This document shows, one piece after another, positions 1 through 22,910 of a DNA stretch of 64,000 bases (the first letter of the stretch is position 1; every line of letters starts with the position of its first letter). This stretch comes from Halanaerobacter jeridensis (lineage in GTDB: Bacteria > Bacillota > Halanaerobiia > Halobacteroidales > Halobacteroidaceae): contig NZ_JAFBDQ010000005.1 of NCBI RefSeq assembly GCF_016908315.1, positions 1 to 64,000 on the forward strand. Direction: 5' to 3'. The position numbers and the translations under genes are program-made. A model generated the notes under the pieces. That model was not told where the DNA came from. It saw nothing but the letters and a program-made list of their open reading frames with translations, and did no database searches.

Positions 1-534
1 ACCACTAGAAGTGCTCTTATCCCTCAGCTGATTAATCGCCTTAAACTTATCAATCAACAGATTGAAGAAATCAAAGAACAATTAGCTGAAAAAATTGATG
101 ATAACCCCTATCAATTAACTACTATACCTGGATTAGGTTACACTTTAGCAGCTCAATTCATTGCTGAAATCGGTCATATTGACCGTTTTGATTCTGCTAA
201 TGAATTAGCTAGGTATGCTGGATTAGCACCAGCTGAATACAGCTCAGGCAAATCTCAGCAAAGTTCTAGGAAAAAATACGGCTGTCGTAACCTAAACCGG
301 GCTTTCTATCTACTAGCTTTACAACAAATTGGCACTACTAGAAATAACAGACCTAAAAATCCAGTTGCCTATAAATACTATCAGAAAAAATTAGCTGAGG
401 GTAAATCACGCAAAGCTGCTTTAGTCTGCTTAAAAAGACGCTTAGTTGATATTATTTATGCTATGATGCGAGACAAATCTACCTATGAATTACCTGAAAC
501 TCCTGAGTACGAAGTCTTAAATCAAGCCAGTTAA
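1..534 (+). CDS. IS110-family transposase, C-terminal part (5' end lies outside the window)
   Basis: Frame 1 is open from base 1 to the TAA at 532-534; it is absent from the ORF track because it has no start codon in the window. The translation ...TIPGLGYTLAAQFIAEIGHIDRFDSANELARYAGLAPAEYSSGKS...KAALVCLKRRLVDIIYAMMRD resembles the C-terminal helix-hairpin-helix module of IS110/IS1111-type transposases. Confidence 0.75.
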   Translation, partial: TTRSALIPQLINRLKLINQQIEEIKEQLAEKIDDNPYQLTTIPGLGYTLAAQFIAEIGHIDRFDSANELARYAGLAPAEYSSGKSQQSSRKKYGCRNLNRAFYLLALQQIGTTRNNRPKNPVAYKYYQKKLAEGKSRKAALVCLKRRLVDIIYAMMRDKSTYELPETPEYEVLNQAS

Positions 535-673
535 TTGATAATCTCTGAATTAGCTGCCATTAGTTAAAAAATCTATAATTATTGCTTTGGGGATTGCTAG
601 GTCAAATTAGTTTCCATTTTTTAACTTGTAAAACTTTTACTTGACATAAGACGTCTTATATTTCACTTTAAAT

Positions 674-1255
674 TCAAAATTTATTACACAACTCATCTAA
701 CTTATCTCTTAATTCTTTTACCTTTTCTTTACTAACTTCGAAATTAACCTTTTTACTTTCCCCATCATTACAAGCGATATCTAATTCAATTAAAGCTGTA
801 GTAATATTATGTCCTAATTCTTCTTTTTTTATTACTTGATAATTTAATGACCTTAACTTATCATTTAAACACGAAATATGAAATAATAATTTTTGTTTGA
901 ATTCATCAGTCAAAATAATTTCACGTAATTTTTCAATTAAGTATGAATTTAATTCAATAAAATCTTTATCAAAATTCTTTTCTCCTAAAGATTTTTTCTC
1001 TATAAATGCTTCAATAAGTTCAGTTAAAATATGTAACGTATATTTTAAATAAAATTCATTCAAATCATATTCTTCTATATATTCATTATATGAAGTCTCT
1101 GATACTCCTATTCCGTATGACATATAATTTACATCCAATCCTATAATCCCTTTTTTATTCATTTCATCTAAACAATTTACAATTTCATCACACTTTTCTT
1201 TATCTGTTAATAAATTTTCTATTTCTTCTTGTTTTTCAAAATTAATTTCTGACAT
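674..1255 (-). CDS. hypothetical acidic protein (193 aa)
   Basis: ORF-track ORF in which I recognise no family. It lies between attC-like site 1 and the IS110 fragment, so it may be the remnant of a further cassette whose own attC-like site is missing. Confidence 0.45.
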   Translation of the reverse strand: MSEINFEKQEEIENLLTDKEKCDEIVNCLDEMNKKGIIGLDVNYMSYGIGVSETSYNEYIEEYDLNEFYLKYTLHILTELIEAFIEKKSLGEKNFDKDFIELNSYLIEKLREIILTDEFKQKLLFHISCLNDKLRSLNYQVIKKEELGHNITTALIELDIACNDGESKKVNFEVSKEKVKELRDKLDELCNKF

Positions 1256-1500
1256 ATTATTCCTCCTCGCATAAGTTTATAATTTGAATTTTTTATAAAC
1301 TATACTCATATGTAAGTAATACTATATATAAGTATATTTTCCTGCATATATAGATAACTTTTTTATTTTCTTATTTTTAATAATAACAAAAATATTAATG
1401 AATTTACAGTTAAAATTATATTTTAAAAATAAAATTTTTATTAGAACCATTAATAAAAATATTCAAAACTACATAAAAAACAAAACTTCTAAAATAGGAT

Positions 1501-1636
1501 TTCGGATAACGTCCCTGCGATTCGCGACGTCTCGCTACTGCTCCTATACTTTGCCTATTCTCCTAAATTTCATAAGTCAGTGCTTAACCCTGCACTATCC
1601 TCTAGACCTAGATGTCGCTAATCGCATGTTATATGA
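1501..1636 (-). repeat. attC-like cassette recombination site, copy 1
   Basis: Plus-strand 5' arm TTCGGATAAC-GTCCC-TGCGATT-C-GCGACGTCT; 3' arm AGATGTCGC-T-AATCGCA-T-GTTATATGA. The heptads TGCGATT and AATCGCA are perfectly complementary. About 85 nt of pyrimidine-rich loop lies between the arms. Confidence 0.8.
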
Positions 1637-2522
1637 TGGAGCGACCCGGAACCACAAAGATAAAATTCTGCTTTTGCTATTATCTTAGCTAAAAATCATT
1701 TCTTACGCATCACAAAGCAGTTCTATTCCTAGCCCAAAACTATTTACCTGAGGGAAAGGGGGCGAAACTTCTATCTTCCTAATAAGTGAATCTTTTCTCT
1801 CAATTATGTAATTCTTGCTAATATGTATAAACCCTTCATAAAATAATCCAATTTTCAAAAAGATAAAAATGGGTTTTCAACTTTCACATTCAAAATGAAA
1901 TTAAGGAGTTAGCTAATACAATTTTGCCATGCTATTCCAAGTTTTTTATCGTCTATCACAATGCTCTTTACTAACAAATTAAAAAGCTCTCCATTTAGCC
2001 TAACTCCTGTCCAGCACCGCACTGGTTTTCCTAACGAAAAGACTAGCCTAATAATTCCTAATCAAGGATAAAGAAAGGTTTTCTTCTGCCCCCTTTCCCT
2101 TTTCCAATTTTCTCTGCAAGATAGAAGTTGACTACATCAATCTAGCCATGCTATACCACAGATTATTTAATAACTCTTATGCTCTTTATTCTGCATTGAA
2201 AATTTATAAGTAGTCACACTTCTATCCTAAGAATAATCCAAATAAATAAACTTGCACAATGATAAAGAGGTTAGGAAATGTTATAAAAATATTGCTGAAG
2301 CTTTTTTTGAATTGAATCTTTTACCTGAGGTTTTAATGAAAGATTTTTAACCCTAATTTGTTTTCTTTTTAAATAAGTAACTAAAAAAGCTCTATTATTT
2401 TCCCTAATTTGCTATTAAAAATCTTAAACCTATAAAAAAATCACTATTTCCTAACCTTCCCTCGAAAATAGTGATCTCTTACTGGTTGGATTCTATAACT
2501 GAAAATCAATATCTTAGCTCTT
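1637..2522 (-). other. ORF-poor cassette (886 bp between attC-like sites 1 and 2)
   Basis: No credible ORF of 60 aa or more. It contains two 12-nt complementarities: GGGAAAGGGGGC at 1752-1763 with GCCCCCTTTCCC at 2088-2099, and AACTTCTATCTT at 1766-1777 with AAGATAGAAGTT at 2118-2129. Confidence 0.5.
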
Positions 2523-2657
2523 TCATATAACGTCCCGCAGCTTCGCGACGTCCCATCAATGCTCTATAACCTAATCTAATGCAACCTTAATTTCATAAGT
2601 CAGTCCTAACCTCATTTATACTCTACAATTGGATGTCGCTAAGCTGCTGTTATGCGA
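2523..2657 (-). repeat. attC-like cassette recombination site, copy 2
   Basis: TCATATAAC-GTCCC-GCAGCTT-C-GCGACGTCC ... GGATGTCGC-T-AAGCTGC-T-GTTATGCGA. The heptads are complementary. The terminal pair has covaried (..GTCC/GGAT.. here versus ..GTCT/AGAT.. in the other copies). The 5' flank complements GTTATATGA of copy 1. Confidence 0.8.
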
Positions 2658-2679
2658 AGTGCTAAATCTCAGATAACAA

Positions 2680-4140
2680 CTATATATCACTTGAAAAATA
2701 ATTATCAATGATTTTCCGTAATTTCTTTACTCCCTTCTCTTTGGCTTTATTTCGAATTTCTTCTTTGGAAAAATAATTTATTTGATATTTATTAGTGCTT
2801 TGAGCGCGTTCTTTCAAATAATCTTCTGCTTCTTTTTCAAAACCACCAGTAGACCATAACTCAAAAATGAGCTCTTTATTTCTATGTTCATCTTCTTGAA
2901 AAGTCCAACTTCTTATTTTAGGAATATTATCTGTCACCCATTTTTTAGCAAACCCCTTTCCTATTGGGGCTTTCTTTCCCTTGCATTCAACAATCCTTAA
3001 TCTATCGGGATTATCATAAGCAAGAACATCAATTTCTCTTCTTTCCCCACTATCTTTATCAAGAACTACCTCATTGATTTTAATATATATAGATGATTGA
3101 GAATAATAATATCCTACAGCCAATTCAAAAAGTGCTCCTCTTAAATTAATAGACGCTCCTCTTAAATCAGATAATTTATCAAATAAATCAAAATATTTAT
3201 CAGGATTTTTACTAATAACTGCAGAAGCATTTTCGATTACATTTACTAATGACTTCAATACTTCAGTATATTGGTTATCAAATAATTCATTAACAAATCC
3301 AATAAATATTCCTCGAGATTTAAGCAACTGAAAAGCTTCCTTCTCTAAATCTTCTACTATAATAATAGGGATAAAAGAAGAAACATTATGATTCTGTTTG
3401 ATAATATCAATTTTATTTAAAAAATATTCAACATGCTCTTCTAATACTTCTTTTCCCAGTAAAATATCTGCCACAATAAATCCTGGTGAATCTTCATTTC
3501 TTAAATTAAGAATATAAGATGGAGCTGTAAAACCCCACTGAAATTTATAAAATTCCGCATTATTAGATAACTTTTCTGCATCATTATAAGAAGTGAAATT
3601 TATTTTTTTCGCCCAATCTTCAAAATTAGAAATAGTTAGTTCTTTTGCTAACTCAATTGCTTTAAATCTGGTATGAGTTGAACTAACTTCTATTAATGAA
3701 TTCAACTGATATATATCATCAGTATATTCAACTAAAACATCTAATTGTAGCAAATCATCAATAATAGAGCTAGCCGGTTTATGTCCTTTTAACTTTTTAA
3801 TCGGAGAACAAGTATAACTAGGTAATTGATTCATATCTATAAATCCATCATGAAATAATACTGCTTGTATAAAAAAATGATACGCTTTAGCATGAGTTTC
3901 AAAACTGTTTACTAAATTTTGATAAAAAAGTTGAGTCTTAAAATGATCACTTAAATAAATAAATTGTTGGTTATTATTAAAAGAAATAGTCTTCATTTTT
4001 TTCACAGGAGAATTTGCCCGGGAAATAGCTTTTCTAGCTGCATCATTAGTTATTTCATGTTTTTCTTCTAATTTTTTAGCTAATACTCCGGAAACCATTG
4101 GACCATCATCTTGAAGAATCTTTTCTATACGTGTTGTCAT
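2680..4140 (-). CDS. wHTH-like N-terminus plus Mrr/PD-(D/E)xK-like nuclease C-terminus (486 aa), single-gene cassette
   Basis: The C-terminal pattern GALFELAVGYYY...REIDVLAYD...LRIVECKGKK resembles the Mrr-type restriction endonuclease core. The N-terminus MTTRIEKILQDDGPMVSGVLAKKLEE... looks like a winged helix. It is the only ORF between sites 2 and 3. Confidence 0.55.
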   Translation of the reverse strand: MTTRIEKILQDDGPMVSGVLAKKLEEKHEITNDAARKAISRANSPVKKMKTISFNNNQQFIYLSDHFKTQLFYQNLVNSFETHAKAYHFFIQAVLFHDGFIDMNQLPSYTCSPIKKLKGHKPASSIIDDLLQLDVLVEYTDDIYQLNSLIEVSSTHTRFKAIELAKELTISNFEDWAKKINFTSYNDAEKLSNNAEFYKFQWGFTAPSYILNLRNEDSPGFIVADILLGKEVLEEHVEYFLNKIDIIKQNHNVSSFIPIIIVEDLEKEAFQLLKSRGIFIGFVNELFDNQYTEVLKSLVNVIENASAVISKNPDKYFDLFDKLSDLRGASINLRGALFELAVGYYYSQSSIYIKINEVVLDKDSGERREIDVLAYDNPDRLRIVECKGKKAPIGKGFAKKWVTDNIPKIRSWTFQEDEHRNKELIFELWSTGGFEKEAEDYLKERAQSTNKYQINYFSKEEIRNKAKEKGVKKLRKIIDNYFSSDI

Positions 4141-4316
4141 TTTATGTCACACCTCACTATTTATAAATAAACAATCAATCAAGCGATCAATTAATTTTTT
4201 TAGTTTTTCAATACCGACAATTCAATAGTTCATAGAGCTGGAAAAAAATACAATGTCACACTTTCCTTTTCAAACTAAAAAATTGTCACTAAAATATGTA
4301 ACTAAGATTTAGCATT

Positions 4317-4453
4317 TCGCATAACGTCCCTGGGCTTCGCGACGTCTAGGCACTGCTCCTATACTTTTGCCTATGCTCCTAAATTTCATAAGTCAGTGCT
4401 GCAACCCTGCCATATCCTCTGTGCCTAGATGTCGCTAAGCCCATGTTATCTGA
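4317..4453 (-). repeat. attC-like cassette recombination site, copy 3
   Basis: TCGCATAAC-GTCCC-TGGGCTT-C-GCGACGTCT-AGGCAC ... GTGCCT-AGATGTCGC-T-AAGCCCA-T-GTTATCTGA. An extra 6-bp stem (AGGCAC/GTGCCT) is present. The flank TAGCATTTCGCATAAC complements GTTATGCGAAGTGCTA of copy 2. Confidence 0.8.
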
Positions 4454-4489
4454 CGTAGCCATTGTCGAATAAAAACTACTGTACTTACA

Positions 4490-6280
4490 TCAAAAATTTT
4501 GGTTATAATTAAGATTAGGTAAGGCAATTAAACAACTTGCTTTTTTATGATATCCATAGCGATTAAGCCCCATATTAGCAAATAAAAACACATCCTTCTT
4601 GGCTCTGGTAATCCCAACATAAAAAATGCTAAGCACTTCTTCAAATTCTTCTCTTAAAGAAGACAAAAACTGGAATTTACAACATTTATCAAACTCTTCC
4701 TTCCCTTGTTTAGCACTACACAACTTGCAAAGTCCTTTTGAAGTAGGAAATGAGTATGCTGTAACTCTAGGAATGTATACATAATCCCATTCTAATCCTT
4801 TGGCACCATGTATTGTAGTTATTGTTATCCTTTCATCAATTTCATTCATTAAATGCTTTAAAGATTCATTTTCTAACACAAAAGAAATCTTTTCAAACTT
4901 TTTATTTTTTGATATATTTTCTGCTTTAGTTTTTTGAAACAATTTTTTTAATAACCTTAACAAGGAATTATATATATACATTGTATCATCTTCATATATA
5001 TCTTCAGTAAGCAATTCCTCCATTCTATCAACAACTCTACTTAGTACACGTTTTGCAATAGATTGATTGATACCACTTTCTTCCAAAAACACATCTAAAG
5101 CTTTCTCATGAAAAGCTACATATTCTCTGTCAGTATCATTGAATAATCCATTAAAATAGGAAATAGATTGTTCTTCTAATTTTTCAATTACCTCATTAGT
5201 ACAATAACTAGCTCGACACAAAATAGATACATCATCAGAATCACTAATCTTATCTTTAATATGTTCTACAATAAACTCGGCTTCTTTATGATTGCTCTTA
5301 AAAAATTTAAAATTCATTTCAGCTTCTTTATCAAAAGAATCCATCTCACTATAATTTAAAAAGATACTACGAATATAACTGTCTAATTTTTTCATCTTTT
5401 CATTATCATCAAATCTATGATTTGTTTTGAATCTCATTTCTTCCATATTAAATTCCTCAGCCATATGGTCAAACAAATCAGGAATAGCTCCAATAAAGCC
5501 ATAAATTTTCTGAATTTTATCTCCCATTAAAATAATTTCGTTTTCTCCCATTAATTTTGTAAGCAATCTATATGATAAATAATTAGTATCTTGAAATTCA
5601 TCAACAATAATCATTTTATAATATTGCTGATAAAAATTTCTAATTGATTTCTTATTTAATAAATAATAGGAAAAAAGCAATAATCCATTAAATGTAATAA
5701 CTTCATTAGGGATTAATATTTCGTTTAAAATCTCAAAATAATTGCTTTCTAACTTTTCAACATTATCAATATTTTCTTTTTCAAACCCATTAAAATTTTT
5801 AATACATTTGTCATACTCTGATAAAATGTCCATTTCCGAAGATGATAGATAATCCTTTAGCACTGCTGAATAATCGGATACTATTCTAAAAGAATCCATA
5901 GCCCCCAAATTTTTATTTAATAAATATCCATGTTTTTTTAACAAAATTCTTGCTAAATTATGATAATTTGCTACATCAAGTTTCTTGGATAAATCAACAT
6001 TTTCATCATCTAATAATTCAGGTAATAATTCATTAGTATCTTTTTTAATTTTATTAGCTGCATTTACGCTAAATGTAAGGGCTAATATTTTTTTATGATG
6101 TATTGTCGGATCTGTAACTATTTTGTAAGCAATTTTACTAATCATTGTTTTGGTTTTCCCATATCCAGCTGGAGCAGTTACAATTATTCTTTGTTTTTGA
6201 CTGAAAATAAAATCAAGTTGCTCTTCATCTTTTCCATGAATATCCTCAATTGATTTAGAAATAGCTTTTTTATTCTTCAT
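4490..6280 (-). CDS. gajB: UvrD/PcrA-like SF1 helicase, Gabija GajB-like (596 aa)
   Basis: Walker A VTAPAGYGKTKT, motif II IIVDEFQDTN, TIHGAKGLEWDYVYIP and YVGITRAKKDVFLF. It overlaps the upstream OLD-family gene by 11 nt. Confidence 0.8.
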   Translation of the reverse strand: MKNKKAISKSIEDIHGKDEEQLDFIFSQKQRIIVTAPAGYGKTKTMISKIAYKIVTDPTIHHKKILALTFSVNAANKIKKDTNELLPELLDDENVDLSKKLDVANYHNLARILLKKHGYLLNKNLGAMDSFRIVSDYSAVLKDYLSSSEMDILSEYDKCIKNFNGFEKENIDNVEKLESNYFEILNEILIPNEVITFNGLLLFSYYLLNKKSIRNFYQQYYKMIIVDEFQDTNYLSYRLLTKLMGENEIILMGDKIQKIYGFIGAIPDLFDHMAEEFNMEEMRFKTNHRFDDNEKMKKLDSYIRSIFLNYSEMDSFDKEAEMNFKFFKSNHKEAEFIVEHIKDKISDSDDVSILCRASYCTNEVIEKLEEQSISYFNGLFNDTDREYVAFHEKALDVFLEESGINQSIAKRVLSRVVDRMEELLTEDIYEDDTMYIYNSLLRLLKKLFQKTKAENISKNKKFEKISFVLENESLKHLMNEIDERITITTIHGAKGLEWDYVYIPRVTAYSFPTSKGLCKLCSAKQGKEEFDKCCKFQFLSSLREEFEEVLSIFYVGITRAKKDVFLFANMGLNRYGYHKKASCLIALPNLNYNQNF

Positions 6281-7997
6281 TATCTTCTACTCCATTCATT
6301 AATTCTTCTATAATATCTTTAAAAACTTCAGGCACATTAGTAACATATTTTGCTAAAAGAGAACCATTTAAAGCATTTTTTTTATTCCTTAATTGTTTTA
6401 TTTCTTCTTCTTGATAATTTAGCATAATTCTATTTTTAACTTCCTCAGGAACCTCATATTCTTCAGGAGCTTCTATAAAAAGTCTGGGACTAAATTCTTC
6501 CATCTCCTTTTTTAAATAATTTATAAAAGGAGTAATTTTATCTGCTTCCTTTTGATAAAGCAAATAATCATTAAAATCAAAACTATTATATATTTCTGCT
6601 TCAAAATCTATTTCATTTGTGAAAAATATTCCATCTTCATTTTTATATTTTTCTTCTTGATCTTTATCAATTATAGCTATAGCTCTAATATCATATGCAT
6701 CATAAAGTTTCATACATCTAAGAACACTACCAGCCCCATCAAGTTTTATAATTCCAATACTTTCTTCATCAATATCATATCCTATTCTTTCAATAAGTAC
6801 TGGTAAAGCTCCGAATTCTGTATCACCTTCTACAAGAACTACAGCTTTACTAAACATAGCTTCTTTAATATACATAAAACTTCTTATTAAGTGTTTATGA
6901 GTTTTATCATTAAAATCTATATTTCTACCACACTTTACATTAACTTTATCATTAACCTTATATAATCTAGTAATTTGTTTATAGTTATTTAATAATATAT
7001 TAGGAGAATGTGTAACAACAAACACTTGTCCAATCAAACCATCTATTTCAAATAATTCTTCGAGAAGTTTGATAAAGTCTTCATTCTTATTATCAATAAT
7101 TCTTTTTATACCTTTAATTAATGCTCTTTGTCTATATGGATGTTGGTGTATTTCAGGTTCATCTAAAGCAATTACAATTGGTAAATATCTATTTCCCTCA
7201 TCATCATTAATTAAAATATTATTAAATTTTTCTTCTTTCTTATTAGTTTTTAATTTTATTAACAAATCTAAAATATATAAAAATATATTAAATGAATATT
7301 GTAAGCCATCACCAAGTTCATTTAAACTTTTACCTGTATTGTCTCCTACCTCTAAAATTCGACTAACAATATTCTGCTCATCATCATCCACAAATGCTTC
7401 AATTACTTCTCCTTTTAACCCATTTATTTTATATATTTTTTTATTTAAATCATCAACAATTTCATTAACATCACTAATATTAATTAAATCTAAATTTTCT
7501 ATATCTCTTTCCTCCAAAATGTTTTCAACTAAGTAATTTAAAACTTTTCCAGTTCCAGTGTTTTTTGAAAAATCTATTTCTTTGCTAGGATTCCTTAATG
7601 ACGAATAATAAATAAAATTGATTTTTTTAATAGTTATTGGATTTATATATGTATCTGCCGGAGATGCATGTTTATATTCAATTCGACTATAAATATCTTC
7701 TTGAGTTGCTATAATAGTTAAACTATATTCATCATCAATATCAAAATTATTTTCAAAAAAACCCAATTCATCTTTATTGTAACTTATAGTGAATTTAACA
7801 GATATCTCCTTCTTTGTATCATCAAAATGTTCTTCATAGAATTTACCCTTACGTAATAAACAATTAAGCAACTCCATTACATTAGTTTTACCAACATTAT
7901 TTTCTCCAACTAAAAAATTAATTTCCTCATCAAATTTAAAATTTAGTCCGCTTAAATTCTTGAAATTTTTTACTTCTTTTATTTCACTTACAAACAT
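6270..7997 (-). CDS. gajA: OLD-family ATPase-TOPRIM nuclease, Gabija GajA-like (575 aa)
   Basis: N-terminal ABC-like ATPase (FLVGENNVGKTNVMELL; LDEPEIHQHP) and a C-terminal TOPRIM (AVVLVEGDTEFGALPVL; IAIIDKD). It is immediately followed by the UvrD-like gene, which is the class-2 OLD/Gabija arrangement. Confidence 0.8.
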   Translation of the reverse strand: MFVSEIKEVKNFKNLSGLNFKFDEEINFLVGENNVGKTNVMELLNCLLRKGKFYEEHFDDTKKEISVKFTISYNKDELGFFENNFDIDDEYSLTIIATQEDIYSRIEYKHASPADTYINPITIKKINFIYYSSLRNPSKEIDFSKNTGTGKVLNYLVENILEERDIENLDLINISDVNEIVDDLNKKIYKINGLKGEVIEAFVDDDEQNIVSRILEVGDNTGKSLNELGDGLQYSFNIFLYILDLLIKLKTNKKEEKFNNILINDDEGNRYLPIVIALDEPEIHQHPYRQRALIKGIKRIIDNKNEDFIKLLEELFEIDGLIGQVFVVTHSPNILLNNYKQITRLYKVNDKVNVKCGRNIDFNDKTHKHLIRSFMYIKEAMFSKAVVLVEGDTEFGALPVLIERIGYDIDEESIGIIKLDGAGSVLRCMKLYDAYDIRAIAIIDKDQEEKYKNEDGIFFTNEIDFEAEIYNSFDFNDYLLYQKEADKITPFINYLKKEMEEFSPRLFIEAPEEYEVPEEVKNRIMLNYQEEEIKQLRNKKNALNGSLLAKYVTNVPEVFKDIIEELMNGVEDNEE

Positions 7998-8128
7998 TTT
8001 TTTTGCCCCCGTTTCAATTTAAGTAATTAATCTTCTAATTTAAATAAAATTAGTTCATCGATTAAAATCAAGAAAAATTATATTTGATCTTAATCTCTTT
8101 GGATAACCTCTTTTTCAAAATGGCTATG

Positions 8129-8263
8129 TCAGATAACGTCCCTGGGGTTCGCGACGTCTCGGGACTGCTCCTCTATTCTGCTCATCATCCTAAATTTCAT
8201 AAGTCAGTGCTACAACCCTGCCCTATCCTCTTACCTAGATGTCGCTAAGCTCATGTTATGTGA
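8129..8263 (-). repeat. attC-like cassette recombination site, copy 4
   Basis: TCAGATAAC-GTCCC-TGGGGTT-C-GCGACGTCT ... AGATGTCGC-T-AAGCTCA-T-GTTATGTGA. The heptads pair with one G:T and one mismatch. The flank AATGGCTATGTCAGATAAC complements GTTATCTGACGTAGCCATT of copy 3. Confidence 0.8.
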
Positions 8264-8749
8264 TGTAGTTAGCAAAAGATATTTTCTATATTCTCCAAAA
8301 CCTATGCAAACACTTCTAAACTATGCTAAACCTATTCTACTCACCTTTGCTAATGAGACTTTTCTTTCACAATCCTTCCCAAACAGCTCTAATTAGAGTT
8401 CTCTTACAACTATAATTCTATAACTTTAAAAAAAGAATAAACCGAAAGAGATAGAGTAGATATCCTTCCCTAAAATGGTTTCTAAATGTGTTTTTAACTT
8501 CACTATACTCAAAAATTTGCCTCTAAACCTGAGCATTTTCGCCGAAAAATTATACCAACGCCCAAAATATAGCCTAGGCATCGCTACTGGACTAACTTCA
8601 AACAAATATACTTCCACATAACTTATATAAGCCTTAACTCTATATTTCTTTTCCTTAATATAAAAAAGCATCTACTCTATCTCTTGACCGGTTATAGAAT
8701 TCTGCAGCATTTTCTATTCTAATACAAACAAACCCATTTGCTAACTATG

Positions 8750-8886
8750 TCACATAACGTCCCTGGGCTTCGCGACGTCTCGGGACTGCTCCTATACTTT
8801 TGCTTATCCTCATAAATTTCATAAGTCAGTGCTGCAACCCTGCCCTATCCTCTATACCTAGATGTCGCTAAGCCCATGTTATCCGA
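8750..8886 (-). repeat. attC-like cassette recombination site, copy 5
   Basis: TCACATAAC-GTCCC-TGGGCTT-C-GCGACGTCT ... AGATGTCGC-T-AAGCCCA-T-GTTATCCGA. The flank TTTGCTAACTATGTCACATAAC complements GTTATGTGATGTAGTTAGCAAA of copy 4. Confidence 0.8.
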
Positions 8887-8923
8887 CGCCCGGCTTCTAT
8901 AAAAAATATATCCCTCTTTTAAC

Positions 8924-9781
8924 CTAGTAACTTTTTAATATATCTAAATATTCACTTTTTGTTTCATTATCATATAAACCCTTCGCTTCATTTAGAGTTT
9001 CTATAGCCCAGTCTACATATTTTTGATTTACTTTTTTACTATTTTCTATTTTTTCTATAAATCTTTCTATTTTATTTCTCAATTTATTGTTTACTGATTT
9101 TAATTTTTCTTCCAATTGTTCATTCTCTTCTGCTAGTTCTTCATTCTCTTCTGCTAGTTCTTCATTCTCTTGCTCTAATTGTTCTTCAATTTCTTTTAAC
9201 ATTTCTAATCTTTGTTTTAACCGTTGTGTTTCCTTCTTTTCTTGTTGTGTTTCCTTCTTTTCTTGTTGTGTTTCCTTCTTTTCTTGTTGTGTTTCCTTCT
9301 TTTCTTGTTGTAATTTCTTATCAGACTGCTCAACTGCCTCATCTAATGCACTTAACTCTTCATCACTCCATTCAGTACTTTCCTTACTACTCTCACCTTC
9401 ATTTAATATTTCTTTTATTTTGCTTTTAACCCAACTAGGAGCTTCTATAAAATCTTTTCTCAATCTTTTATTCTCTGATTTCAACAACTCTTTATAAGCT
9501 AAATCTAAATTAGAAAGATTATCTTTAGTCAATATATCTATTTCAATTAAATTTTCTGCGAATTCTCCTGGTTTCATAAATTTATCTTCTAATTTGCTTA
9601 TTTCTTCTAATTCGTCATATAATTTAGTTTTAGCCTTATTAGTACTTAATTCAGCTTGTTTTAGTTTCTCTTCTGTTAAACCATAATCCTCATTTAACTT
9701 AGTAGTTACATCATCTGCTAAAACATTCACTGTCAAAACCAATAGCAATACAATCAATAATAAAACACTTAACTTCTTCAT
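8924..9781 (-). CDS. secreted coiled-coil protein with tandem heptapeptide repeats (285 aa)
   Basis: N-terminal signal-like segment MKKLSVLLLIVLLLVLTVNVLA. It carries a QQEKKET x4 repeat and an ELAEENE repeat, is strongly charged and looks helical. It is the sole ORF of the cassette between sites 5 and 6. Confidence 0.6.
   Translation of the reverse strand: MKKLSVLLLIVLLLVLTVNVLADDVTTKLNEDYGLTEEKLKQAELSTNKAKTKLYDELEEISKLEDKFMKPGEFAENLIEIDILTKDNLSNLDLAYKELLKSENKRLRKDFIEAPSWVKSKIKEILNEGESSKESTEWSDEELSALDEAVEQSDKKLQQEKKETQQEKKETQQEKKETQQEKKETQRLKQRLEMLKEIEEQLEQENEELAEENEELAEENEQLEEKLKSVNNKLRNKIERFIEKIENSKKVNQKYVDWAIETLNEAKGLYDNETKSEYLDILKSY
9224..9307 (-). repeat. 4 x 21-bp perfect tandem repeat inside the coiled-coil gene
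   Basis: The unit ttgtgtttccttcttttcttg is repeated four times on the plus strand and encodes QQEKKET x4. A second 21-bp unit (ttcattctcttctgctagttc) is repeated just over twice at about 9121-9170. Confidence 0.85.
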
Positions 9782-9860
9782 AATCTGCCTCCCCTAAATT
9801 ATGGTTTTTAATGTTTTTAATATGTATTTCTTTCAATAAAAATAGCAGCTAAGCCGGGTT

Positions 9861-9994
9861 TCGGATAACGTCCCTAGGGTTCGCGACGTCTAGCTAAACC
9901 CTCCTATAACTTGTCCATCCTCTAAAACTCAATATTCAATTCCTAACCTTCCCTAACCTCTCAACCTAGATGTCGCTAACCCTATGTTAGACGA
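9861..9994 (-). repeat. attC-like cassette recombination site, copy 6 (divergent loop subfamily)
   Basis: TCGGATAAC-GTCCC-TAGGGTT-C-GCGACGTCT ... AGATGTCGC-T-AACCCTA-T-GTTAGACGA. The heptads are complementary. The loop differs from copies 1-5. The flank AAGCCGGGTTTCGGATAAC complements GTTATCCGACGCCCGGCTT of copy 5. Confidence 0.8.
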
Positions 9995-10014
9995 TGTTTG
10001 CTTGATAAAAATCA

Positions 10015-11046
10015 TTACCTTCTCTCTATTTCTTCAATTATTAATTTTGGGAATTTATATTCAATTACAGCAATAGCTTCTTTTAAAAGCGGATAAGAAA
10101 AATCTCCTTTTGAACTAGTAATCATTGACATCCAATGAGTTGGATAATATCGAACTAACATACCAATCGCATATGAAATAATGTAAATAGTTAATAAAGA
10201 AGAAAAATTTAAATTATCAGCTAAAGGGGCAACAGCAAATATATTATTTTTTCTATCATTTTTTACAAACGGAACTCTATTATAAAACTCTTCATTAGAA
10301 GAATGAATTATTCTAAAAGATATATTTTCTAAATTACCTGCAAAATTATGTTTTTCCTTCTTTCTCGTTTTAATGTCTTTTGGTAAACCAAAGTCATCTC
10401 TAACTAATTCCTTATTAGGTAACCCAATACTAGTTTCTAACACTGCAATATCTGTTTGTTCAGATAAACAAAAAACAATTGCATTATAACATTTAGAATA
10501 ATCATCAAAAGTATTCTCATATATATTTTGTAATTCCGGAATCCTCGCTAATATTTCTTTAATAGTAATTAAATTATTACTATCTTCTTTACCCCCATAT
10601 TGTTTTATTTTAGTTCGATTTGGATATGGAGCTATATATATTGAACTTCTCTCAATATTTTCTGTAACCTCCCATAACTTAGAAAATGTGCCAGAAGTAA
10701 TCTCAACATTCAAATTAGGTACTTCTTCTATTCCATCTGAAAGTTTTTGGGTCCAATTTTTCACTCTTAATCCATGAGATGGTTTAAGGCTAGTTACTCT
10801 TGCAAAAGGATCTAAAAATAAAATTAATCCACGACAAAATGCAACTACTCCGTAATAAAACAATAGAGGAGATACAACATTATCAGCCTGTTTTGCACTG
10901 GAAAAATATTCTCTTCCTTGAGTAATATGAGAAACTATTTCCTCTGCTTTTCCAGCCGAAAGTTCTCTATCATGCTTCTCTTCATAAAATTTTGAAACTA
11001 AATCTTTGCTTTCATACAAAGATATCTTAGACCAAACATTTTTCAT
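10015..11046 (-). CDS. YaaC-like protein (343 aa), second gene of a two-gene cassette
   Basis: The N-terminal region ...EIVSHITQGREYFSSAKQADNVVSPLLFYYGVVAFCRGLILFLDP... resembles my recollection of the B. subtilis YaaC family. The family assignment was not verified by any search. Confidence 0.45.
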   Translation of the reverse strand: MKNVWSKISLYESKDLVSKFYEEKHDRELSAGKAEEIVSHITQGREYFSSAKQADNVVSPLLFYYGVVAFCRGLILFLDPFARVTSLKPSHGLRVKNWTQKLSDGIEEVPNLNVEITSGTFSKLWEVTENIERSSIYIAPYPNRTKIKQYGGKEDSNNLITIKEILARIPELQNIYENTFDDYSKCYNAIVFCLSEQTDIAVLETSIGLPNKELVRDDFGLPKDIKTRKKEKHNFAGNLENISFRIIHSSNEEFYNRVPFVKNDRKNNIFAVAPLADNLNFSSLLTIYIISYAIGMLVRYYPTHWMSMITSSKGDFSYPLLKEAIAVIEYKFPKLIIEEIERR

Positions 11047-11069
11047 TATTTACCTCCCTTTTTCCCTTG

Positions 11070-11528
11070 TCACAAATTTACTTTTTCTAACTGTGTAGGC
11101 CAAGCTCCTTGACCATTTCCTCCTTTAAAATAAACTCTATAATTTTTTCCTATAGAAGAAACAACATGTTTAGTAATATACTTCTTTTCTTCACCATCAA
11201 TTTCAACTTTACTTTTCTTTTTAACTTTGTCTCCAGGCTTTAAATTTAATTCTTCAATTGCTTGCTTATTATTTTCTTTTAATTTATCCTCAATTTTTGC
11301 TGAGGCAACTCTCAACGAATTGTTTTTAAGATCTAAACCCAATTCTTCTCCAAATTCAATTTGTTTTTCAGTAGACTCATTAAATTCCATATTAGGATCA
11401 ATTGCTGGTTCAACTGCATCATAAATCCTTGCACTTGCTACATTACGAGTATCATTAGAAATATCAACTTCTAATTTAATTGCTATATTCTTTTGAAATG
11501 GTGTTGGTTTTTTATGAACATCATTCAC
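11070..11528 (-). CDS. hypothetical protein with an internal duplicated ~32-aa motif (152 aa), first gene of the two-gene cassette
   Basis: The two repeats are TPFQKNIAIKLEVDISNDTRNVASARIYDAV and STEKQIEFGEELGLDLKNNSLRVASAKIEDKL. The lysine-rich C-terminal segment ends in ...YRVYFKGGNGQGAWPTQLEKV. It lies 23 nt upstream of the YaaC-like gene. Confidence 0.5.
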   Translation of the reverse strand: MNDVHKKPTPFQKNIAIKLEVDISNDTRNVASARIYDAVEPAIDPNMEFNESTEKQIEFGEELGLDLKNNSLRVASAKIEDKLKENNKQAIEELNLKPGDKVKKKSKVEIDGEEKKYITKHVVSSIGKNYRVYFKGGNGQGAWPTQLEKVNL

Positions 11529-11573
11529 AAATAAATTTCCTCCTTTAAAAAATATAATATAACAAAAGCAAAT

Positions 11574-11709
11574 GTCGTCTAACGTCCCTGGGGTTCGCGA
11601 CGTCTAGCTCAACCCTCTTATAACTTGTCCTTCCTATAAAACTTTCATATGTAATCTCTACCTTCACCCATCCTCCTAGCCTAGATGTCGCTAACCCCAT
11701 GTTATGTGA
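11574..11709 (-). repeat. attC-like cassette recombination site, copy 7 (divergent loop subfamily)
   Basis: TCGTCTAAC-GTCCC-TGGGGTT-C-GCGACGTCT ... AGATGTCGC-T-AACCCCA-T-GTTATGTGA. Its CTAAC core matches the GTTAG of copy 6 rather than its own GTTAT. Confidence 0.8.
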
Positions 11710-11845: not shown

Positions 11846-12648
11846 TTACTCCTCAATTTGCAACTCAACTCCTGGTATATAAACATTAATCCTTTCTATT
11901 TTAAATCTAATTCTATTTTCTAATTCTTTTTTCACAATATCTTGAATTGTTTGCCCTACTTTATAAACTTTTTTCTAGAATCAACAATTATATTTAAGTT
12001 AACAGTAATTCTTTCACCTTGTCTTTCAATCTCAACACCTTTAGATAAATCTTTTAAACCTAATATATCCTTAAGCGCATTCAAAAAACTACCTCCATTA
12101 GTATCTACTACCCCATCTATCTCTCTAACAACTATTCCCACTAACTCTTCTATCTTGTTATATTTTTCATCTTCAATACTAATTGAATTCAATTCAATAT
12201 TATTTTCATTTCCTAATTTATATTTAGGAAATAATCTATTACTTGGATCATCTGGTTCAGTATAATCAAATTTTTTTATATTAACTTTAACCTTGTTAAC
12301 TTCAATTCCTGTTTTATGTTTCAATCTATATTTTACAGTATCTCTTATTTCTTGGGCTACTATATTACTTTGCATTTCATCTTTTATTATTGCATTAATT
12401 TCAATAATAAATCCGTCATCAATTATTCTATATTCTATTCCCTTAGATAAATTATTTATTCCTAATAATACACGAATATCATCAAAAAAACTTCCCTGCG
12501 TATCAATTACTCCATCTATTTCTCTAACAATAACCCCAATTAAAATTTTTATTACTTCTTTAGAAATCCTAATCTTTCCTTTGTTATTTTTTTGTTCAAT
12601 ATCAATATCCTTAGATTTTTTCATAATTGTTTTGCTCTCCTTTTGCAA
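11846..12648 (-). pseudogene. tandem-domain Asp23/Gls24-like protein, frameshifted in a homopolymer (first cassette next to the attI-like site)
   Basis: There are two Asp23-like halves (VIKILIGVIVREIDGVIDTQG... and IEELVGIVVREIDGVVDTNGG...). The ORF-track ORF stops at 11956, but the second domain continues in another frame (KVYKVGQTIQDIVKKELENRIRFKIERINVYIPGVELQIEE, stop at 11846-11848). The frame change is at the T6 run at 11969-11974. Confidence 0.6.
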
Positions 12649-12675
12649 TATAGATAAAAAGTTTTATAAGAAGTT

Positions 12676-12760
12676 TCACATAACTTATTTTTTAACGACA
12701 CAAAAATCATAATTTATAGTTGTTCCTTATATTTACGATGATTGTGTCGTTAAAATCAGA
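12676..12760 (-). promoter_or_regulatory. attI-like primary recombination site abutting the recombinase stop codon
   Basis: TCACATAAC at 12676-12684 complements GTTATGTGA at the right end of copy 7. An inverted pair of boxes follows: TTAACGACACA at 12692-12702 and TGTGTCGTTAA at 12743-12753. The box TGTCGTTAA matches TGTCGCTAA of the attC-like arms at 8 of 9 positions. Confidence 0.6.
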
Positions 12761-13801
12761 TTAGTTGATTAAATTATCTAACGGACTTTCTATGTTTGCA
12801 ATATCTCTTTTGCTGACATGAGTATATATTTCAGTAGTAGTAGAACTCTTATGTCCTAATAATTTTTGGATGTATCGTAAATCAGTTCCTTGCTCTAATA
12901 AATGTGTTGCAAAAGAATGTCTTAAAGTATGTACAGAAACATCTTTAGTAATATTAGCTTTTCTACAGGCTTTTTTGAATATTCTTTGTACTGATCTTGT
13001 AGTTAAGTGTTCTCCTTCTTTGCCTCCAGGAAACAACCTCTTTTCGGGTTGATATAATTGATGATACATTTTTATCTGTTTCAGACAAGATTCTGATAAG
13101 ATCGTATAGCGATCTTTTCTCCCCTTCCCTTGATTAATTTTAATTAGCATTCTATCACTATTAATATCATCCATTTTTAGTTTAACAACTTCACTAACCC
13201 TTAATCCAGCAGAATAAACTACATACAAAATTGTTTTATGTTTGGGGTTATCTAGACTATCTAAAATCTTCGCTACTTCTTTTTTACTTAATACTTCCGG
13301 TAACTTTTTTTCTTTTTGTGGTCGTGATAAAACAACTGAAATATCTTTATTATCCAATACTTCCCGGGCCAAGAACTTAATAGCACTAATCCCCTGGTTA
13401 ACAAATGAATGTGATAAATCTTGGTCTAATAAATCCAACAAATAATCCTTAATCTCAGCATCAGTCACTCGTGATAACTTCTTATTAATAAATCGTGCAA
13501 ACTGCCTAATATGACTCATATAAACTTTTTCCGTCTTTTCACTATAACCTTCTAAATTTAACTGATTTTTTAGTTCATTAATTACTAGTTCATTTTCTAA
13601 AGCACTGGAAATTATAATTCTTTCATTAACAAATTTCTCTTTTAACTGTTCTAAAATATCATAATCATAAGGTACTAACCATGCTCTAGCTTTAGGGGCC
13701 CATTCCCGCTTATTAATTTCTTTAATTTTTTTAATTTTTCTTTCCGAATAATCAAATTTAACAGCTAGTTGTCCTTCTAACTTTTCAATTCTTAATGTCA
13801 T
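12761..13801 (-). CDS. tyrosine recombinase (Xer/integrase family, 346 aa) with a ~70-aa N-terminal extension; candidate cassette integrase
   Basis: Catalytic motifs are present: AGLRVSEV, HTLRHSFATHLL and LLGHKSSTTTEIYTHV. Only about 55 aa separate GKGRKDRYTIL from HTLRHSF, so the ~100-aa spacing I recall for IntI1 and VchIntIA is absent. The N-terminus is MTLRIEKLEGQLAVKFDYSERKIKKIKEINKREWAPKARAWLVPYDY... Confidence 0.85.
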   Translation of the reverse strand: MTLRIEKLEGQLAVKFDYSERKIKKIKEINKREWAPKARAWLVPYDYDILEQLKEKFVNERIIISSALENELVINELKNQLNLEGYSEKTEKVYMSHIRQFARFINKKLSRVTDAEIKDYLLDLLDQDLSHSFVNQGISAIKFLAREVLDNKDISVVLSRPQKEKKLPEVLSKKEVAKILDSLDNPKHKTILYVVYSAGLRVSEVVKLKMDDINSDRMLIKINQGKGRKDRYTILSESCLKQIKMYHQLYQPEKRLFPGGKEGEHLTTRSVQRIFKKACRKANITKDVSVHTLRHSFATHLLEQGTDLRYIQKLLGHKSSTTTEIYTHVSKRDIANIESPLDNLIN

Positions 13802-14036
13802 AAATTAGCTCCTCTCTCGCACGCATAAAATTAAATCTAACAAAAAATAGATTTTATAACATTATAACCAAATTTAAGAGCTAATATACATTAAAATATA
13901 TTTGCAACTAGCTTTTCTTATTATATTATTGATTATATACATTTATAGCATATTCTAGTTATACTTTTATTTTTCTCCACTAAAAAATATTTTCCTGCAC
14001 ATTCATCGTTAAAATCAATTTATTCTACTTATTTTT

Positions 14037-14073
14037 ACAAAAAAATAAAAGCTATCAAAATAATTTTGATAGC
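14037..14073 (-). terminator. intrinsic terminator after the MCP remnant
   Basis: Stem GCTATCAAAA (14051-14060) with TTTTGATAGC (14064-14073). On the minus strand it is followed by a T-run (A-run at 14037-14050 on plus). Confidence 0.6.
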
Positions 14074-14154
14074 AAATTAAAGTTTATATTCTTTTTTATC
14101 TATAAACTAGGGCCAACAACAAATAAGTTACTCAATCAAAATTAATATTTATTA

Positions 14155-14820
14155 TTAAACATCATTCTTCTGAACTAATTGATTTAAACCTTCAGCTACA
14201 TCTGCTAATTGCTGAGAAGAAGCTGCAATGTCATCAGACATATGAGTTATTTCTTGTGATACATCCAAAACTTCATCACTATTTTCAGCTAAAGTTTGGG
14301 TGGAATTGTTTATAGCTTCTATTGCTGCATTTAAAGCTAATAAATTAGTCTGTTCTGCTATATTATCAATCAATTTAATTATTTTCCCAACTTCTTCAGA
14401 ATTATGATCAAGCTGATTAATCGTTTTTACTGTTTGACTTACAGAATCAGTAATGTCTTCCATACTGTCAATTGCTTTTTGAACTTTTTTGCTACCCAAC
14501 TGAACTCTCTTATTAGTTTTTTGAGCAAATTCTGCTACTTCGTTAATACTATTAGATATACCGTGTATTTTAAGTGCCATTTTTTCAATCAAAGAAGAAC
14601 TAGTTTCAATTGAGGCATTCCCTTCTTCAGCAGCAGCTGATAATTGTTGACTAGTAGCAGTAACTTCTCCAACTTTTTCTTTTATATTATTAATAATGAT
14701 ATTTAAATTCTGACTTAAATCTAAAGCTTCAGCCTGTTTTTCTTCTGCCAAATTTATTAAATGAATTGATTTATTAATTAACAAAATAGCAACAATTCCA
14801 GTGAAAATAAAAATAACCAT
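14155..14820 (-). pseudogene. methyl-accepting chemotaxis protein remnant (221 aa)
   Basis: It aligns by eye to the signalling domain of the 531-aa MCP at 37424-39019 ([17 protein letters not shown]..., [16 protein letters not shown]). It lacks the sensor region and the conserved hairpin tip ([18 protein letters not shown]...). Confidence 0.6.
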
Positions 14821-14991
14821 AATTAAAATCTAAGTAGTAGGGCCAAACATAGCTAATATAGTATCTGTAATTATATAATATTCAACTAATAATTAGTGGA
14901 ATTAAGGTAATTGAGTTTAAAAATAGATATTGTTTTGTTACTAAGGATACTTGATAAGTTTTTAATTTATTCCCTTTAACTACTAAAAATA

Positions 14992-15780: not shown

Positions 15781-15811
15781 TGATCACCTTTATTCAATTA
15801 ATTTTACTACC

Positions 15812-16630: not shown

Positions 16631-16716
16631 TGAAAAAAACCTCCACTAATTTAATTACTTTTAATCCAAGCAACAATATATTCCACTGAATTAATTTATT
16701 CTCCCTTACTAATATT

Positions 16717-16951
16717 TTATTCTTTGTTCTGGGCCAACAACTTACGAAATCCTCTTTCATCAAAATACGTTACTGCTTCAAAATTAGCCGGATGATTATA
16801 GGCACCTTCCTCAAAATATTCTGTCCTTCCCCTCTTGCTCCACTAAATATTGATTAACTGACCTTGATACAGTAGTCTTTCCTGCACTAGGCAGCCCTTC
16901 TACTAAAATTAAATTTTCTTCCCCTAACACTTCACCTCTCAGTTTTATCAC
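16717..16951 (-). pseudogene. remnant of a P-loop kinase/ATPase-like gene (frameshifted, truncated)
   Basis: The minus-strand translation gives VIKLRGEVLGEENLILVEGLPSAGKTTVSRSVNQYLVEQEGKDRIF, then a stop. It continues in another frame as EYFEEGAYNHPANFEAVTYFDERGFRKLLAQNKE. It is not in the ORF track. Confidence 0.4.
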
Positions 16952-17029
16952 ATAAAACTCTAATTACTATAATATTTCTCTGTAAAACTTAATTCTCATT
17001 CAATTGATTCAACTAAAACTGCACACCAG

Positions 17030-17898: not shown

Positions 17899-17981
17899 AA
17901 TCTATCTCCTTTCATGAAAGTGTAATTAAATAAACTAATAGTTTACTTAATTACATTTTACTCTTTTTTTAATTATTATCA

Positions 17982-18018
17982 AGAAAAAAAGAACATATCT
18001 AATCTCAGACATGTTCTT
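17982..18018 (-). terminator. intrinsic terminator after the 1624-aa gene
   Basis: Stem AAGAACAT (17989-17996) with ATGTTCTT (18011-18018), followed on the minus strand by T7. Confidence 0.65.
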
Positions 18019-18034
18019 AATTACATATTAATTA

Positions 18035-22909: not shown

Positions 22910-22910
22910 C

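Follow-up and report, generated by a model that had tools for sequence, protein, structure and literature searches.

A Gabija-type gene pair as a probable single cassette of an integron-like array in Halanaerobacter jeridensis

Introduction

Gabija is recognised by GajA, a member of the OLD family whose N-terminal part is an ABC-type ATPase and whose C-terminal part is a TOPRIM nuclease, and by an adjacent, co-oriented gene for GajB, a UvrD-like superfamily 1 (SF1) helicase. In Bacillus cereus, where GajA comprises ~578 amino acids (aa) and GajB ~494 aa, the system consists of a 4:4 GajA-GajB complex with a nucleotide-gated TOPRIM nicking enzyme and acts by abortive infection. Here we describe a Gabija-type gene pair of Halanaerobacter jeridensis (Halanaerobiales, Bacillota) within the first 64,000 nucleotides of contig NZ_JAFBDQ010000005.1 (RefSeq assembly GCF_016908315.1), a stretch that we refer to as the window. 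The pair shares with the Gabija system of B. cereus VD045 (PDB 8SM3, 8U7I, 8J4T, 8X5I) the two-gene operon, in which an OLD ATPase-TOPRIM gene precedes that of a UvrD-like SF1 helicase, as well as the size of GajA, but differs in sequence (~15% identity) and in setting, being part of a recombination cassette rather than of a defence island. The tandem arrangement of an OLD gene with a UvrD/PcrA/Rep-like helicase gene, together with the match to a TOPRIM profile, is likewise shared with the class 2 OLD nucleases (Schiltz et al. 2019; 6NJV, 6NK8), although work on these has been biochemical and structural and has not involved a mobile cassette. We conclude that positions 4325-8136 probably represent one cassette of a sedentary chromosomal integron-like array, with an intact Gabija-type module (class 2 OLD nuclease and UvrD-like helicase) as its cargo.

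Canonical attC sites of integrons are imperfect palindromes of 57-141 bp with R'' (..AAC) and R' (GTT..) boxes, in which structure is conserved above sequence; their extrahelical bases reportedly project from the 3' arm of the bottom strand, R''-L'', and dictate strand choice. A group of integrons with an 'inverted integrase', for example in Treponema denticola, is also said to exist, and the Xer proteins act on one short dif site with a 6-8-bp spacer. An insertion containing the I2 helix has been reported as required for attC hairpin recombination (eLife PMC7790495), and the I2 domain is treated as an innovation that docks the extrahelical bases of attC and thereby permits single-strand recombination (PMC7790495; PMC4889954). 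Bacillota are reported to lack complete integrons (PMC4889954). Integron cassettes encode defence systems, as described for the sedentary chromosomal integrons of Vibrio (Darracq et al., bioRxiv 10.1101/2024.07.02.601686) and for mobile integrons (Kieffer et al., bioRxiv 10.1101/2024.07.02.601719), where the systems are 'streamlined', with at most two components, and shorter than their non-integron relatives. The main text of the integron-defence preprint that was checked does not mention Gabija.

Results

An intact Gabija-type gene pair

The DNA between attC-like sites 3 and 4 contains two long open reading frames (ORFs) only, the gajA-like and gajB-like genes, both on the minus strand (Table 1). 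The start of the gajB-like gene overlaps the end of the gajA-like gene by 11 nt, and the ORFs coincide with those given in an earlier note on this DNA, which had been made from the letters alone. The gajA-like product matches the PADLOC GajA model PDLC00085 with E=6e-158, residues 3-568 aligning to model positions 3-576 of 580, and is additionally matched by Pfam AAA_15, AAA_21 and OLD-like_TOPRIM. Similarly, the gajB-like product matches the PADLOC GajB model PDLC00107 with E=9.7e-179 (residues 4-594 on positions 3-585 of 587) and carries Pfam UvrD-helicase in its N-terminal and UvrD_C in its C-terminal part. An OLD ATPase-TOPRIM GajA with an adjacent, co-oriented UvrD-like GajB is therefore present, and the profile failure against which the earlier note had set its claim of a complete Gabija-type pair did not occur, since both models are matched near full length.

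Among the residues of the GajA-like protein that are invariant in an alignment of 25 homologues are G31, G36 and K37, which form a Walker A-type motif, D279, E280 and H330, as well as the acidic residues E379, E390, E394, D444 and D446 within the TOPRIM region. The GxGKT, DEFQD and VGxTRA motifs of the GajB-like protein are intact when aligned to E. coli UvrD. Homologues measure 574-576 aa (GajA) and 593-600 aa (GajB), so that the window proteins are as long as their relatives and neither gene has decayed. On these sequence grounds, both genes read as intact members of the families to which the profiles assign them.

The GajA-like protein and the recombinase at the head of the array are 100% identical to NCBI proteins of H. 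jeridensis. The closest GajA homologues, with 57-63% identity, derive from Bacillus spp., metagenome-assembled genomes (MAGs) and metagenome contigs. In three loci (L009, L012 and L096; 59-63% identity) the overlapping gajA-gajB pair is kept in non-array contexts, with products of ~575 and 593-600 aa; the pairs of L009 and L012 are intact and that of L096 is cut at the contig start. The pair looks disrupted in two further loci (L011 and L095). In Bacillus sp. CMF12, genes for a cytosine methylase, Vsr and a MutH-like protein as well as a second UvrD-like helicase gene surround the homologue, a neighbourhood that resembles a defence island. Because the overlapping pair occurs outside arrays, gajA-gajB appears to have been captured as one unit from the ordinary Firmicutes gene pool. 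Formation of the two-gene cassette by fusion of two cassettes was considered and rejected, since the overlapping pair is kept outside arrays in L009, L012 and L096.

Seven hairpin sites in a single orientation

The ~127-bp repeat is present in seven copies in the window, all in one orientation and all within positions 1-11705. When its arms are searched separately, each yields 6 matches at <=3 mismatches, where 0 are expected from shuffles, and a covariance model built from the seven copies finds all 7 at E<=1e-30 and no further site elsewhere in the 64 kb. Sites 3 and 4, which the earlier note had described as attC-like, are thus real. No Rfam family matches the repeats, the only Rfam match in the window being a fluoride riboswitch.

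As single-stranded DNA (ssDNA), the sites fold, from the outside inwards, into a terminal box of 5-6 bp (ATAACG/TGTTAT), a 4-nt bulge, a variable stem of 7 bp, a C/T mismatch, a stem of 9 bp or longer and a loop of ~77 nt, and their ends read ATAAC...GTTAT. Across 30 distinct sites from six sources, 95.2% of the cells are paired, and compensatory double changes are found in 10 of the 25 pairs, values that none of 500 shuffles attain. The pairing is asymmetric, with 79 G.T compared with 8 A.C cells, and the plus strand pairs in 95.2% of cells compared with 85.7% for its complement; therefore only one strand folds well, namely the plus strand, which corresponds to the 'bottom' strand. The folding strand appears to template the G-rich, gene-carrying strand, the orientation described for the chromosomal integrons of Vibrio. 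Two G.T pairs are invariant. The repeats have 42-49% GC and lie in AT-rich intergenic DNA.

The ~127-bp sites are imperfect palindromes that have R boxes of the AAC/GTT type, a loop that is long and variable, and stems that covary, and they agree with canonical attC in palindromic structure, boxes and length. They differ in where the single conserved bulge is located: its 4 nt, TCCC in 26 of 31 sites, are found on the 5', R'-proximal arm of the better-folding strand, that is, on the cleaved arm, rather than on the R''-L'' arm. In addition, a 1x1 C/T mismatch occupies the position where a bulged L-box base would be.

Crossover point and limits of the cassette

The crossover point can be read from comparison with L002, a metagenomic sister locus with 10 sites, the recombinase of which is 87% identical to that of the window. 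Homology past the recombinase gene ends at ...AATAAGTTATGTGA, beyond which the cassettes differ, with the Asp23 cassette following in the window and the 8124-8758 cassette of the window following in L002. The sequence GTTATGTGA forms the attI junction in L002, and the identical GTTATGTGA stands behind site 5 in the window. The breakpoint between the two arrays falls exactly at G|TTATGTGA, adjoining the conserved attI-like site, and in the window, L002 and L006 alike the sequence flanking the recombinase is shared as far as ...AATAAG|TTATGTGA, after which it leads into different cassettes. Thus, the crossover lies in the G|TTAT core of the minus strand, which is therefore the 'top' strand in the integron sense, and the attI-like site lies between 12760 and 12684. 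The converse assignment of the plus strand as 'top' strand, which the bulge positions would imply and which would render the ORFs antisense, was rejected on the basis of the attI junction with its crossover at the minus-strand G|TTAT.

Read on the minus strand, the Gabija cassette starts with TTATCTGAC directly after the G of site 4, where the ATAA|C end of this site marks its start point, and its final base is the G of the R' box of site 3, which it therefore contains. Its start, TTATCTGA, is exactly complementary to TCAGATAA, the R'' box of this site. The limits 4454-8128 proposed in the earlier note hold for the segment between the repeats but not for the cassette, which extends further by its crossover points and includes site 3. 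That the gene pair fills the space between the two sites with only short spacers is correct, the leader before the gajA-like gene measuring 139 bp and the trailer behind the gajB-like gene 35-40 bp (4450-4489).

Neighbouring sites are linked by their flanks, since at 7 of 7 junctions the right flank of site k and the left flank of site k+1 are reverse complements over 9-10 nt, whereas the right flank of a site does not complement its own left flank. Every cassette thus starts with a sequence that complements the R box of the site at its own downstream end. Any circularised cassette would consequently regain a perfectly paired 9-bp terminal box. Flank complementarity is compatible with a crossover on either side and was rejected as a means of fixing that side by itself.

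Cassette content varies between the two relatives. In L002, the 8124-8758 cassette comes first in order and is present twice in tandem, the 1506-2660 cassette is present in at least four copies, and the 9.3 kb of array seen there contain no Gabija. The DNA between sites 1 and 2 (1633-2526) has no ORF >51 aa, with L002 copies that are 85-90% identical, and the 1506-2660 cassette may be non-coding or encode a small peptide. Cassettes are hence reshuffled and duplicated between related arrays, and the array is unidirectional, each unit being made up of its ORF or ORFs and its own site. All cassette ORFs are on the minus strand, and the stop codon precedes the site by 25-42 bp, except in one of the five cassettes, where the distance is ~165 bp. 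Together, the covarying hairpins, the flank complementarity and the permutation in L002 with its G|TTAT breakpoint argue for the proposal of the earlier note that the pair is a single cassette of a mobile array, and the repeat appears to behave as a cassette recombination site.

The same features bear on whether the repeats could instead be REP-like (repetitive extragenic palindromic), MITE-like (miniature inverted-repeat transposable element) or terminator-like palindromes of an ordinary genomic island, with a coincidental resemblance to cassettes. GC-rich hairpins in an AT-rich intergenic setting, situated ~25-165 bp behind stop codons, with four of the five distances at or below 45 bp, are what such palindromes would look like. 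Yet the sites are confined to the region downstream of the recombinase in a single orientation, neighbouring sites are linked by flank complementarity, related arrays differ by the order and copy number of entire cassettes, their breakpoints falling in the GTTAT core, and no T-tract terminators were found in 4200-8400, which together render this explanation extremely improbable.

Size and composition of the cassette

Cassette sizes were measured for 53 other members of the repeat family, of which 25 from genomic arrays (six of them in the window) range from 566 to 1,869 bp and ~28 from metagenome contigs from 659 to 3,980 bp. With 3,812 bp, the Gabija cassette is the second largest of ~54, and the suggestion that it is unusually large stands, as it is exceeded by one of the 53 others, an interval of 3,980 bp in L112. 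The third-largest interval, of 3,537 bp in L103, is enlarged by an IS3 insertion. The comparison of GC content with the chromosome, which had been proposed as a check, yields 26.3% for the cassette and 34.2% for 13802-64000, the chromosomal run to the right of the recombinase, and GC at third codon positions (GC3) is 0.11 in gajA. The Gabija cassette is low in GC and accessory in character.

A recombinase related to IntI and its attI-like site

The array is headed by a tyrosine recombinase of 346 aa that is transcribed toward the cassettes, as in the inverted-integrase integrons. Its catalytic set is complete (R201, K226, H291, R294, H317, Y326), and it scores 227.8 against NCBIfam NF040815 (cut-off 220) and 218 against the integron integrase model TIGR02249, below the cut-off of 265. 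A C-terminal SPLD tail is common to this protein and the IntI-type recombinases of four comparison loci (L084-L087), which bear the insertion found in integron integrases and were obtained from a scan of genome contigs for recombinases. Comparison with VchIntIA (2A3V) gives ~30% identity in two blocks that skip ~42 residues, with residues 244-264 of the window protein opposite residues 178-240 of VchIntIA, and the IntI-specific additional domain (the I2 helix near patch III) is not found. Instead, the recombinase has an extra conserved N-terminal domain of ~60 aa, in which W34 and W41 are invariant. Its alignment with P. abyssi XerA is collinear and free of gaps (34% identity), and the protein reaches the cut-off of NCBIfam XerA_Arch, but in contrast to Xer proteins it heads arrays of ~127-bp hairpin sites between mobile cassettes. 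The IntI-related recombinase, the SPLD tail and the attI-like G|TT crossover are shared with canonical integrons, whereas the lack of a ~41-aa I2-containing insertion and the additional N-terminal domain are not. The platform is integron-like and not a canonical integron.

The first crossover is located 77 bp past the stop codon of the recombinase gene; by sequence comparison, this gene is directly followed by an attI-like site whose crossover point reads G|TT. Within it, an inverted repeat of 14-17 bp (12742-12755 with 12690-12703, spacing ~38 nt) is present, the arms of which co-vary in L006 (CGACATAAATGTCAT / ATGACATTTATGTCG); the attI-like site may also fold, or may double as a terminator of the recombinase gene. 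Since the recombinase gene is co-directional with the cassettes, read-through into the array is possible.

Recombinase homologues with 50-60% identity are widespread in Halanaerobiales and Clostridia. Orthologues with 52-87% identity, with the same geometry and repeat family, are found in L002, L006, L008, L093, L094, L097, L098 and L115, which places the recombinase beside repeat arrays in 9 loci including the window, from at least four named genera and metagenomes. The covariance model detects the repeat family directly downstream of recombinase orthologues in five other loci, namely L002, a Bacillota MAG (L006), Natroniella sp. (L008), Halonatronum saccharophilum (L093) and Orenia metallireducens (L094, 7 sites). 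A pattern scan of metagenomes finds the family in 27 further contigs, 3 of which have the recombinase in the same geometry. A profile scan of genome contigs with the recombinase alignment, which keyed on generic tyrosine-recombinase motifs, gave as its best locus among the matches listed one with 46% identity; none of the loci listed has the repeat.

These associations bear on a second explanation, namely that the repeats represent canonical attC, belonging either to an ordinary integron with its IntI beyond the window or to a cluster of attC sites lacking integron integrases (CALIN), and that the recombinase is an unrelated Xer-type bystander. Such an arrangement would account for a recombinase that has no IntI insertion and falls below the TIGR02249 cut-off, and the array does continue past the left edge of the window, where its far end is unseen. 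We nevertheless consider it decidedly unlikely, because a recombinase orthologue heads the array in the same orientation in 9 loci, the junction between conserved and variable sequence (attI) is found 77 bp behind its stop codon, the crossover polarity puts the origin of the array at the recombinase end, the 64 kb contain no other tyrosine recombinase, and the bulge arm is opposite to that of canonical attC.

Table 1. Features of the array, with positions in the window
Feature	Coordinates	Strand	Basis or remark
attC-like site 1	1506-1632	plus	arm searches and covariance model
attC-like site 2	2527-2655	plus	arm searches and covariance model
attC-like site 3, the Gabija cassette's own site	4321-4449	plus	covariance model 156.6 bits; fold -25.7 kcal/mol, z=-6.4
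Gabija cassette by crossover points, 3,812 bp	4325-8136	minus	attI/attC junction comparison with L002
gajB-like gene, UvrD/PcrA-type SF1 helicase, 596 aa	4490-6280	minus	PADLOC and Pfam matches
gajA-like gene, OLD-family ABC ATPase and TOPRIM nuclease, 575 aa	6270-7997	minus	PADLOC and Pfam matches
Cassette leader, 139 bp	7998-8136	minus	TATAAT 8082-8077, poor -35, GGGGG Shine-Dalgarno before ATG
attC-like site 4, of the upstream 81-aa-ORF cassette	8133-8259	plus	covariance model 150 bits; fold -11.3 kcal/mol, z=-0.6
attC-like site 5	8754-8882	plus	arm searches and covariance model
attC-like site 6	9865-9990	plus	arm searches and covariance model
attC-like site 7, closing the first (Asp23) cassette	11579-11705	plus	arm searches and covariance model
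attI-like site	12684-12760	minus	between recombinase stop and first crossover G(12684)|TT; homology with L002 and L006
IntI-related tyrosine recombinase, 346 aa	12761-13801	minus, transcribed toward the cassettes	Pfam Phage_integrase, SAM_4

Cargo of the other cassettes

Further defence genes are found in the sister arrays, with Shedu in L002 and L094, SoFic in L102 and L103, a PIN-domain protein in L100 and a PtuB-like HNH protein in L093. No PADLOC model matches the other cassettes of the window, which encode a COMM-domain protein, a 486-aa protein, a 285-aa coiled-coil protein, a YaaC-like together with a 152-aa protein, and Asp23. Thus, the idea that the array is a reservoir of phage-defence genes is supported qualitatively, by the sister arrays, but not quantitatively.

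The ORF of the 285-aa protein (8924-9781, minus) contains internal 21-nt tandem repeats, and its product is coiled-coil-like with a weak TrlF-like match. In Natroniella sp. ANB-PHB2 (L008, CP175562), an IS91-family (Y2 transposase) gene is present four times within 12432-20955, each copy between sites of a divergent subtype (ATAACGATATTAAGAGTT...), and has the appearance of a transposase gene turned amplified cassette. A group II intron reverse transcriptase (RVT_1 and GIIM) is encoded at 18215-19471 of L093, ~7 kb downstream of the recombinase; the model detects a single site in this locus, where the site family may have diverged. Another attC-like family (CCTAACGCCTATTGGCTAAACG ... CGTTTAGCCTGTTGTTAGG) recurs every ~1 kb in Firmicutes bacterium HGW-Firmicutes-8 (L045, 229-4733 and 5060-5959) and adjoins another I2-less recombinase in divergent orientation. 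Associations of I2-less recombinases with arrays may be wider than Halanaerobiales.

Discussion

A model for movement and function

We suggest that the adjacent IntI-related recombinase would excise the Gabija cassette as a 3,812-bp circle by recombination of site 4 with site 3. The substrates would probably be folded hairpins of the bottom strand, the plus strand of the window, because of the covariation, the G.T asymmetry and the conserved bulge. The excised circle could then re-insert at the attI-like site behind the recombinase gene. The Gabija pair, at present fifth in the array, would owe its expression to read-through or to its own weak promoter, for which a perfect TATAAT, identified by reading the sequence, is a candidate, and translational coupling would yield both proteins, which are predicted to form a complex of the GajA-GajB type. 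By analogy with the Gabija system of B. cereus, nucleotides would restrain the TOPRIM nuclease until phage infection releases it and the infection is aborted, such that the pair would confer immunity of the abortive-infection type.

Several observations weigh against this reading of the locus. With respect to the cargo, neither phmmer with the GajA-like protein nor a GajA family profile of 25 sequences reaches B. cereus GajA in the PDB at E<=0.01, and the best PDB matches of the profile are class 1 and class 2 OLD nucleases. Foldseek with an AlphaFold2 (AF2) model of the GajA-like protein (predicted local distance difference test (pLDDT) 82) returns B. cereus GajA (8U7I_A) as the top PDB match (E=1.8e-17, TM ~0.5, 15% identity), with Thermus OLD and the retron Eco8 effector close behind and a score barely above that of the class 1 OLD 6P74. 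The distance to the only Gabija so far characterised is great (GajA ~15% identity), and the GajB-like protein is ~100 aa longer than GajB of B. cereus. As B. cereus GajA is missed by sequence searches and found by fold alone, we file the window pair as a remote Gabija/class 2 OLD-UvrD subfamily, which is recognisable by profile or fold alone. With respect to expression, a scan for consensus promoters finds none on the minus strand of the leader at its threshold; this promoter and terminator scan of 4200-8400 performed no better than on shuffles. With respect to mobility, site 4 is a poor hairpin (z=-0.6), with a weaker stem and 2 mismatches, so that excision of the Gabija cassette may be inefficient and the cassette relatively immobile. 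The repeat is absent from the contexts of the closest GajA homologues (L009-L012, L095 and L096), and a second copy of the Gabija cassette, as direct proof of its mobility, was not found. Lastly, the ~41-aa block ALERKYP...W.WQYVFP...DPRSG..RRHH of the L084-L087 recombinases, which we take to be the additional domain of IntI with the I2 helix, is absent from the window recombinase and its relatives, and extrahelical bases on the R''-L'' arm were looked for in the sites and are not present, the conserved bulge being on the opposite arm. In the absence of the I2-containing insertion, the ssDNA mechanism is one that we infer.

The distance from characterised Gabija also leaves room for a pair that serves DNA repair, replication restart or plasmid or phage maintenance and merely matches broad PADLOC Gabija profiles. 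This would fit with ~15% identity to a GajA that sequence searches miss, with PADLOC GajA and GajB models that number dozens and are loosely defined, and with the fact that class 2 OLD proteins with a UvrD-like helicase are known mainly from biochemistry (PDB 6NJV, 6NK8). Such a function appears unlikely to us, however, given that the pair is accessory, low in GC and carried on a cassette, that the Bacillus sp. CMF12 homologue lies in a neighbourhood resembling a defence island, that Shedu and SoFic are abundant in the sister arrays, and that the top fold match is GajA of the GajAB complex. We therefore retain the Gabija-type defence cassette as the preferred reading.

Relation to integron-borne defence

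The Gabija cassette joins a recently established kind, that of the defence system in an integron cassette. Its novelty lies in the cargo, a two-gene module of full size, and still more in the platform, where the recombinase lacks I2, the sites are mirrored and the host belongs to Bacillota. With the systems of Vibrio sedentary chromosomal integrons and of mobile integrons it has in common that a defence system occupies one cassette of a unidirectional array with structured sites, and Shedu is frequent both in the published integron defence cassettes and in the sister arrays described here. It differs from these in the full size of the pair (575 and 596 aa, like non-array homologues) and in its 3.8-kb cassette. 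Defence in integron cassettes has been recognised very recently and almost only in Vibrio, where the systems are reportedly miniaturised and limited by the size of the cassette. A full-length two-gene Gabija-type system in one cassette therefore indicates that this size constraint is not universal.

The platform is possibly more important than the cargo, since it displays the organisational hallmarks of an integron (recombinase, attI-like site, attC-like sites and shuffled cassettes) without I2. It is possible, and we propose this tentatively, that the arrays constitute an undescribed integron-like branch in Halanaerobiales (diderm Bacillota) and in hypersaline and soda-lake metagenomes, characterised by an I2-less, N-terminally extended recombinase, by folded single-stranded sites of mirrored bulge polarity and by multigene defence cargo of ~3.8 kb. 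If so, the I2 innovation would be unnecessary for the recombination of cassettes at hairpin sites, and capture of the integron type would operate in a phylum thought to lack it. No paper on Halanaerobiales integrons or I2-less integron integrases was found in a literature search of incomplete coverage, which makes this negative weak evidence of novelty and an earlier description possible. With this array, recombination at hairpin sites and the choice of strand could be examined in a natural system that lacks I2, and the cassettes of hypersaline anaerobes provide a new defence-rich pool (Gabija, Shedu, SoFic) for the discovery of systems.

Other features of the window

The fluoride riboswitch (Rfam RF01734, 48.7 bits) is located at 53702-53770 on the minus strand, upstream of a gene for a 395-aa protein (52229-53416), and three tandem paralogous genes of ~400 aa (53836-57755) lie directly beyond it. 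A segment of ~190 bp is duplicated at 29733-29923 and 44814-45005, 15 kb apart, with 93-96% identity. A giant DUF3686/DUF7902/AAA protein of 1,624 aa, possibly another conflict or repair system, is encoded on the minus strand within 18035-24950 together with an upstream 679-aa partner for which Pfam gives no match; L002 also encodes the giant protein, near its recombinase. Lastly, a cluster of TTACT-rich repeats of 37-61 nt is present at 25999-26406, upstream of the gene at 26395-27192.

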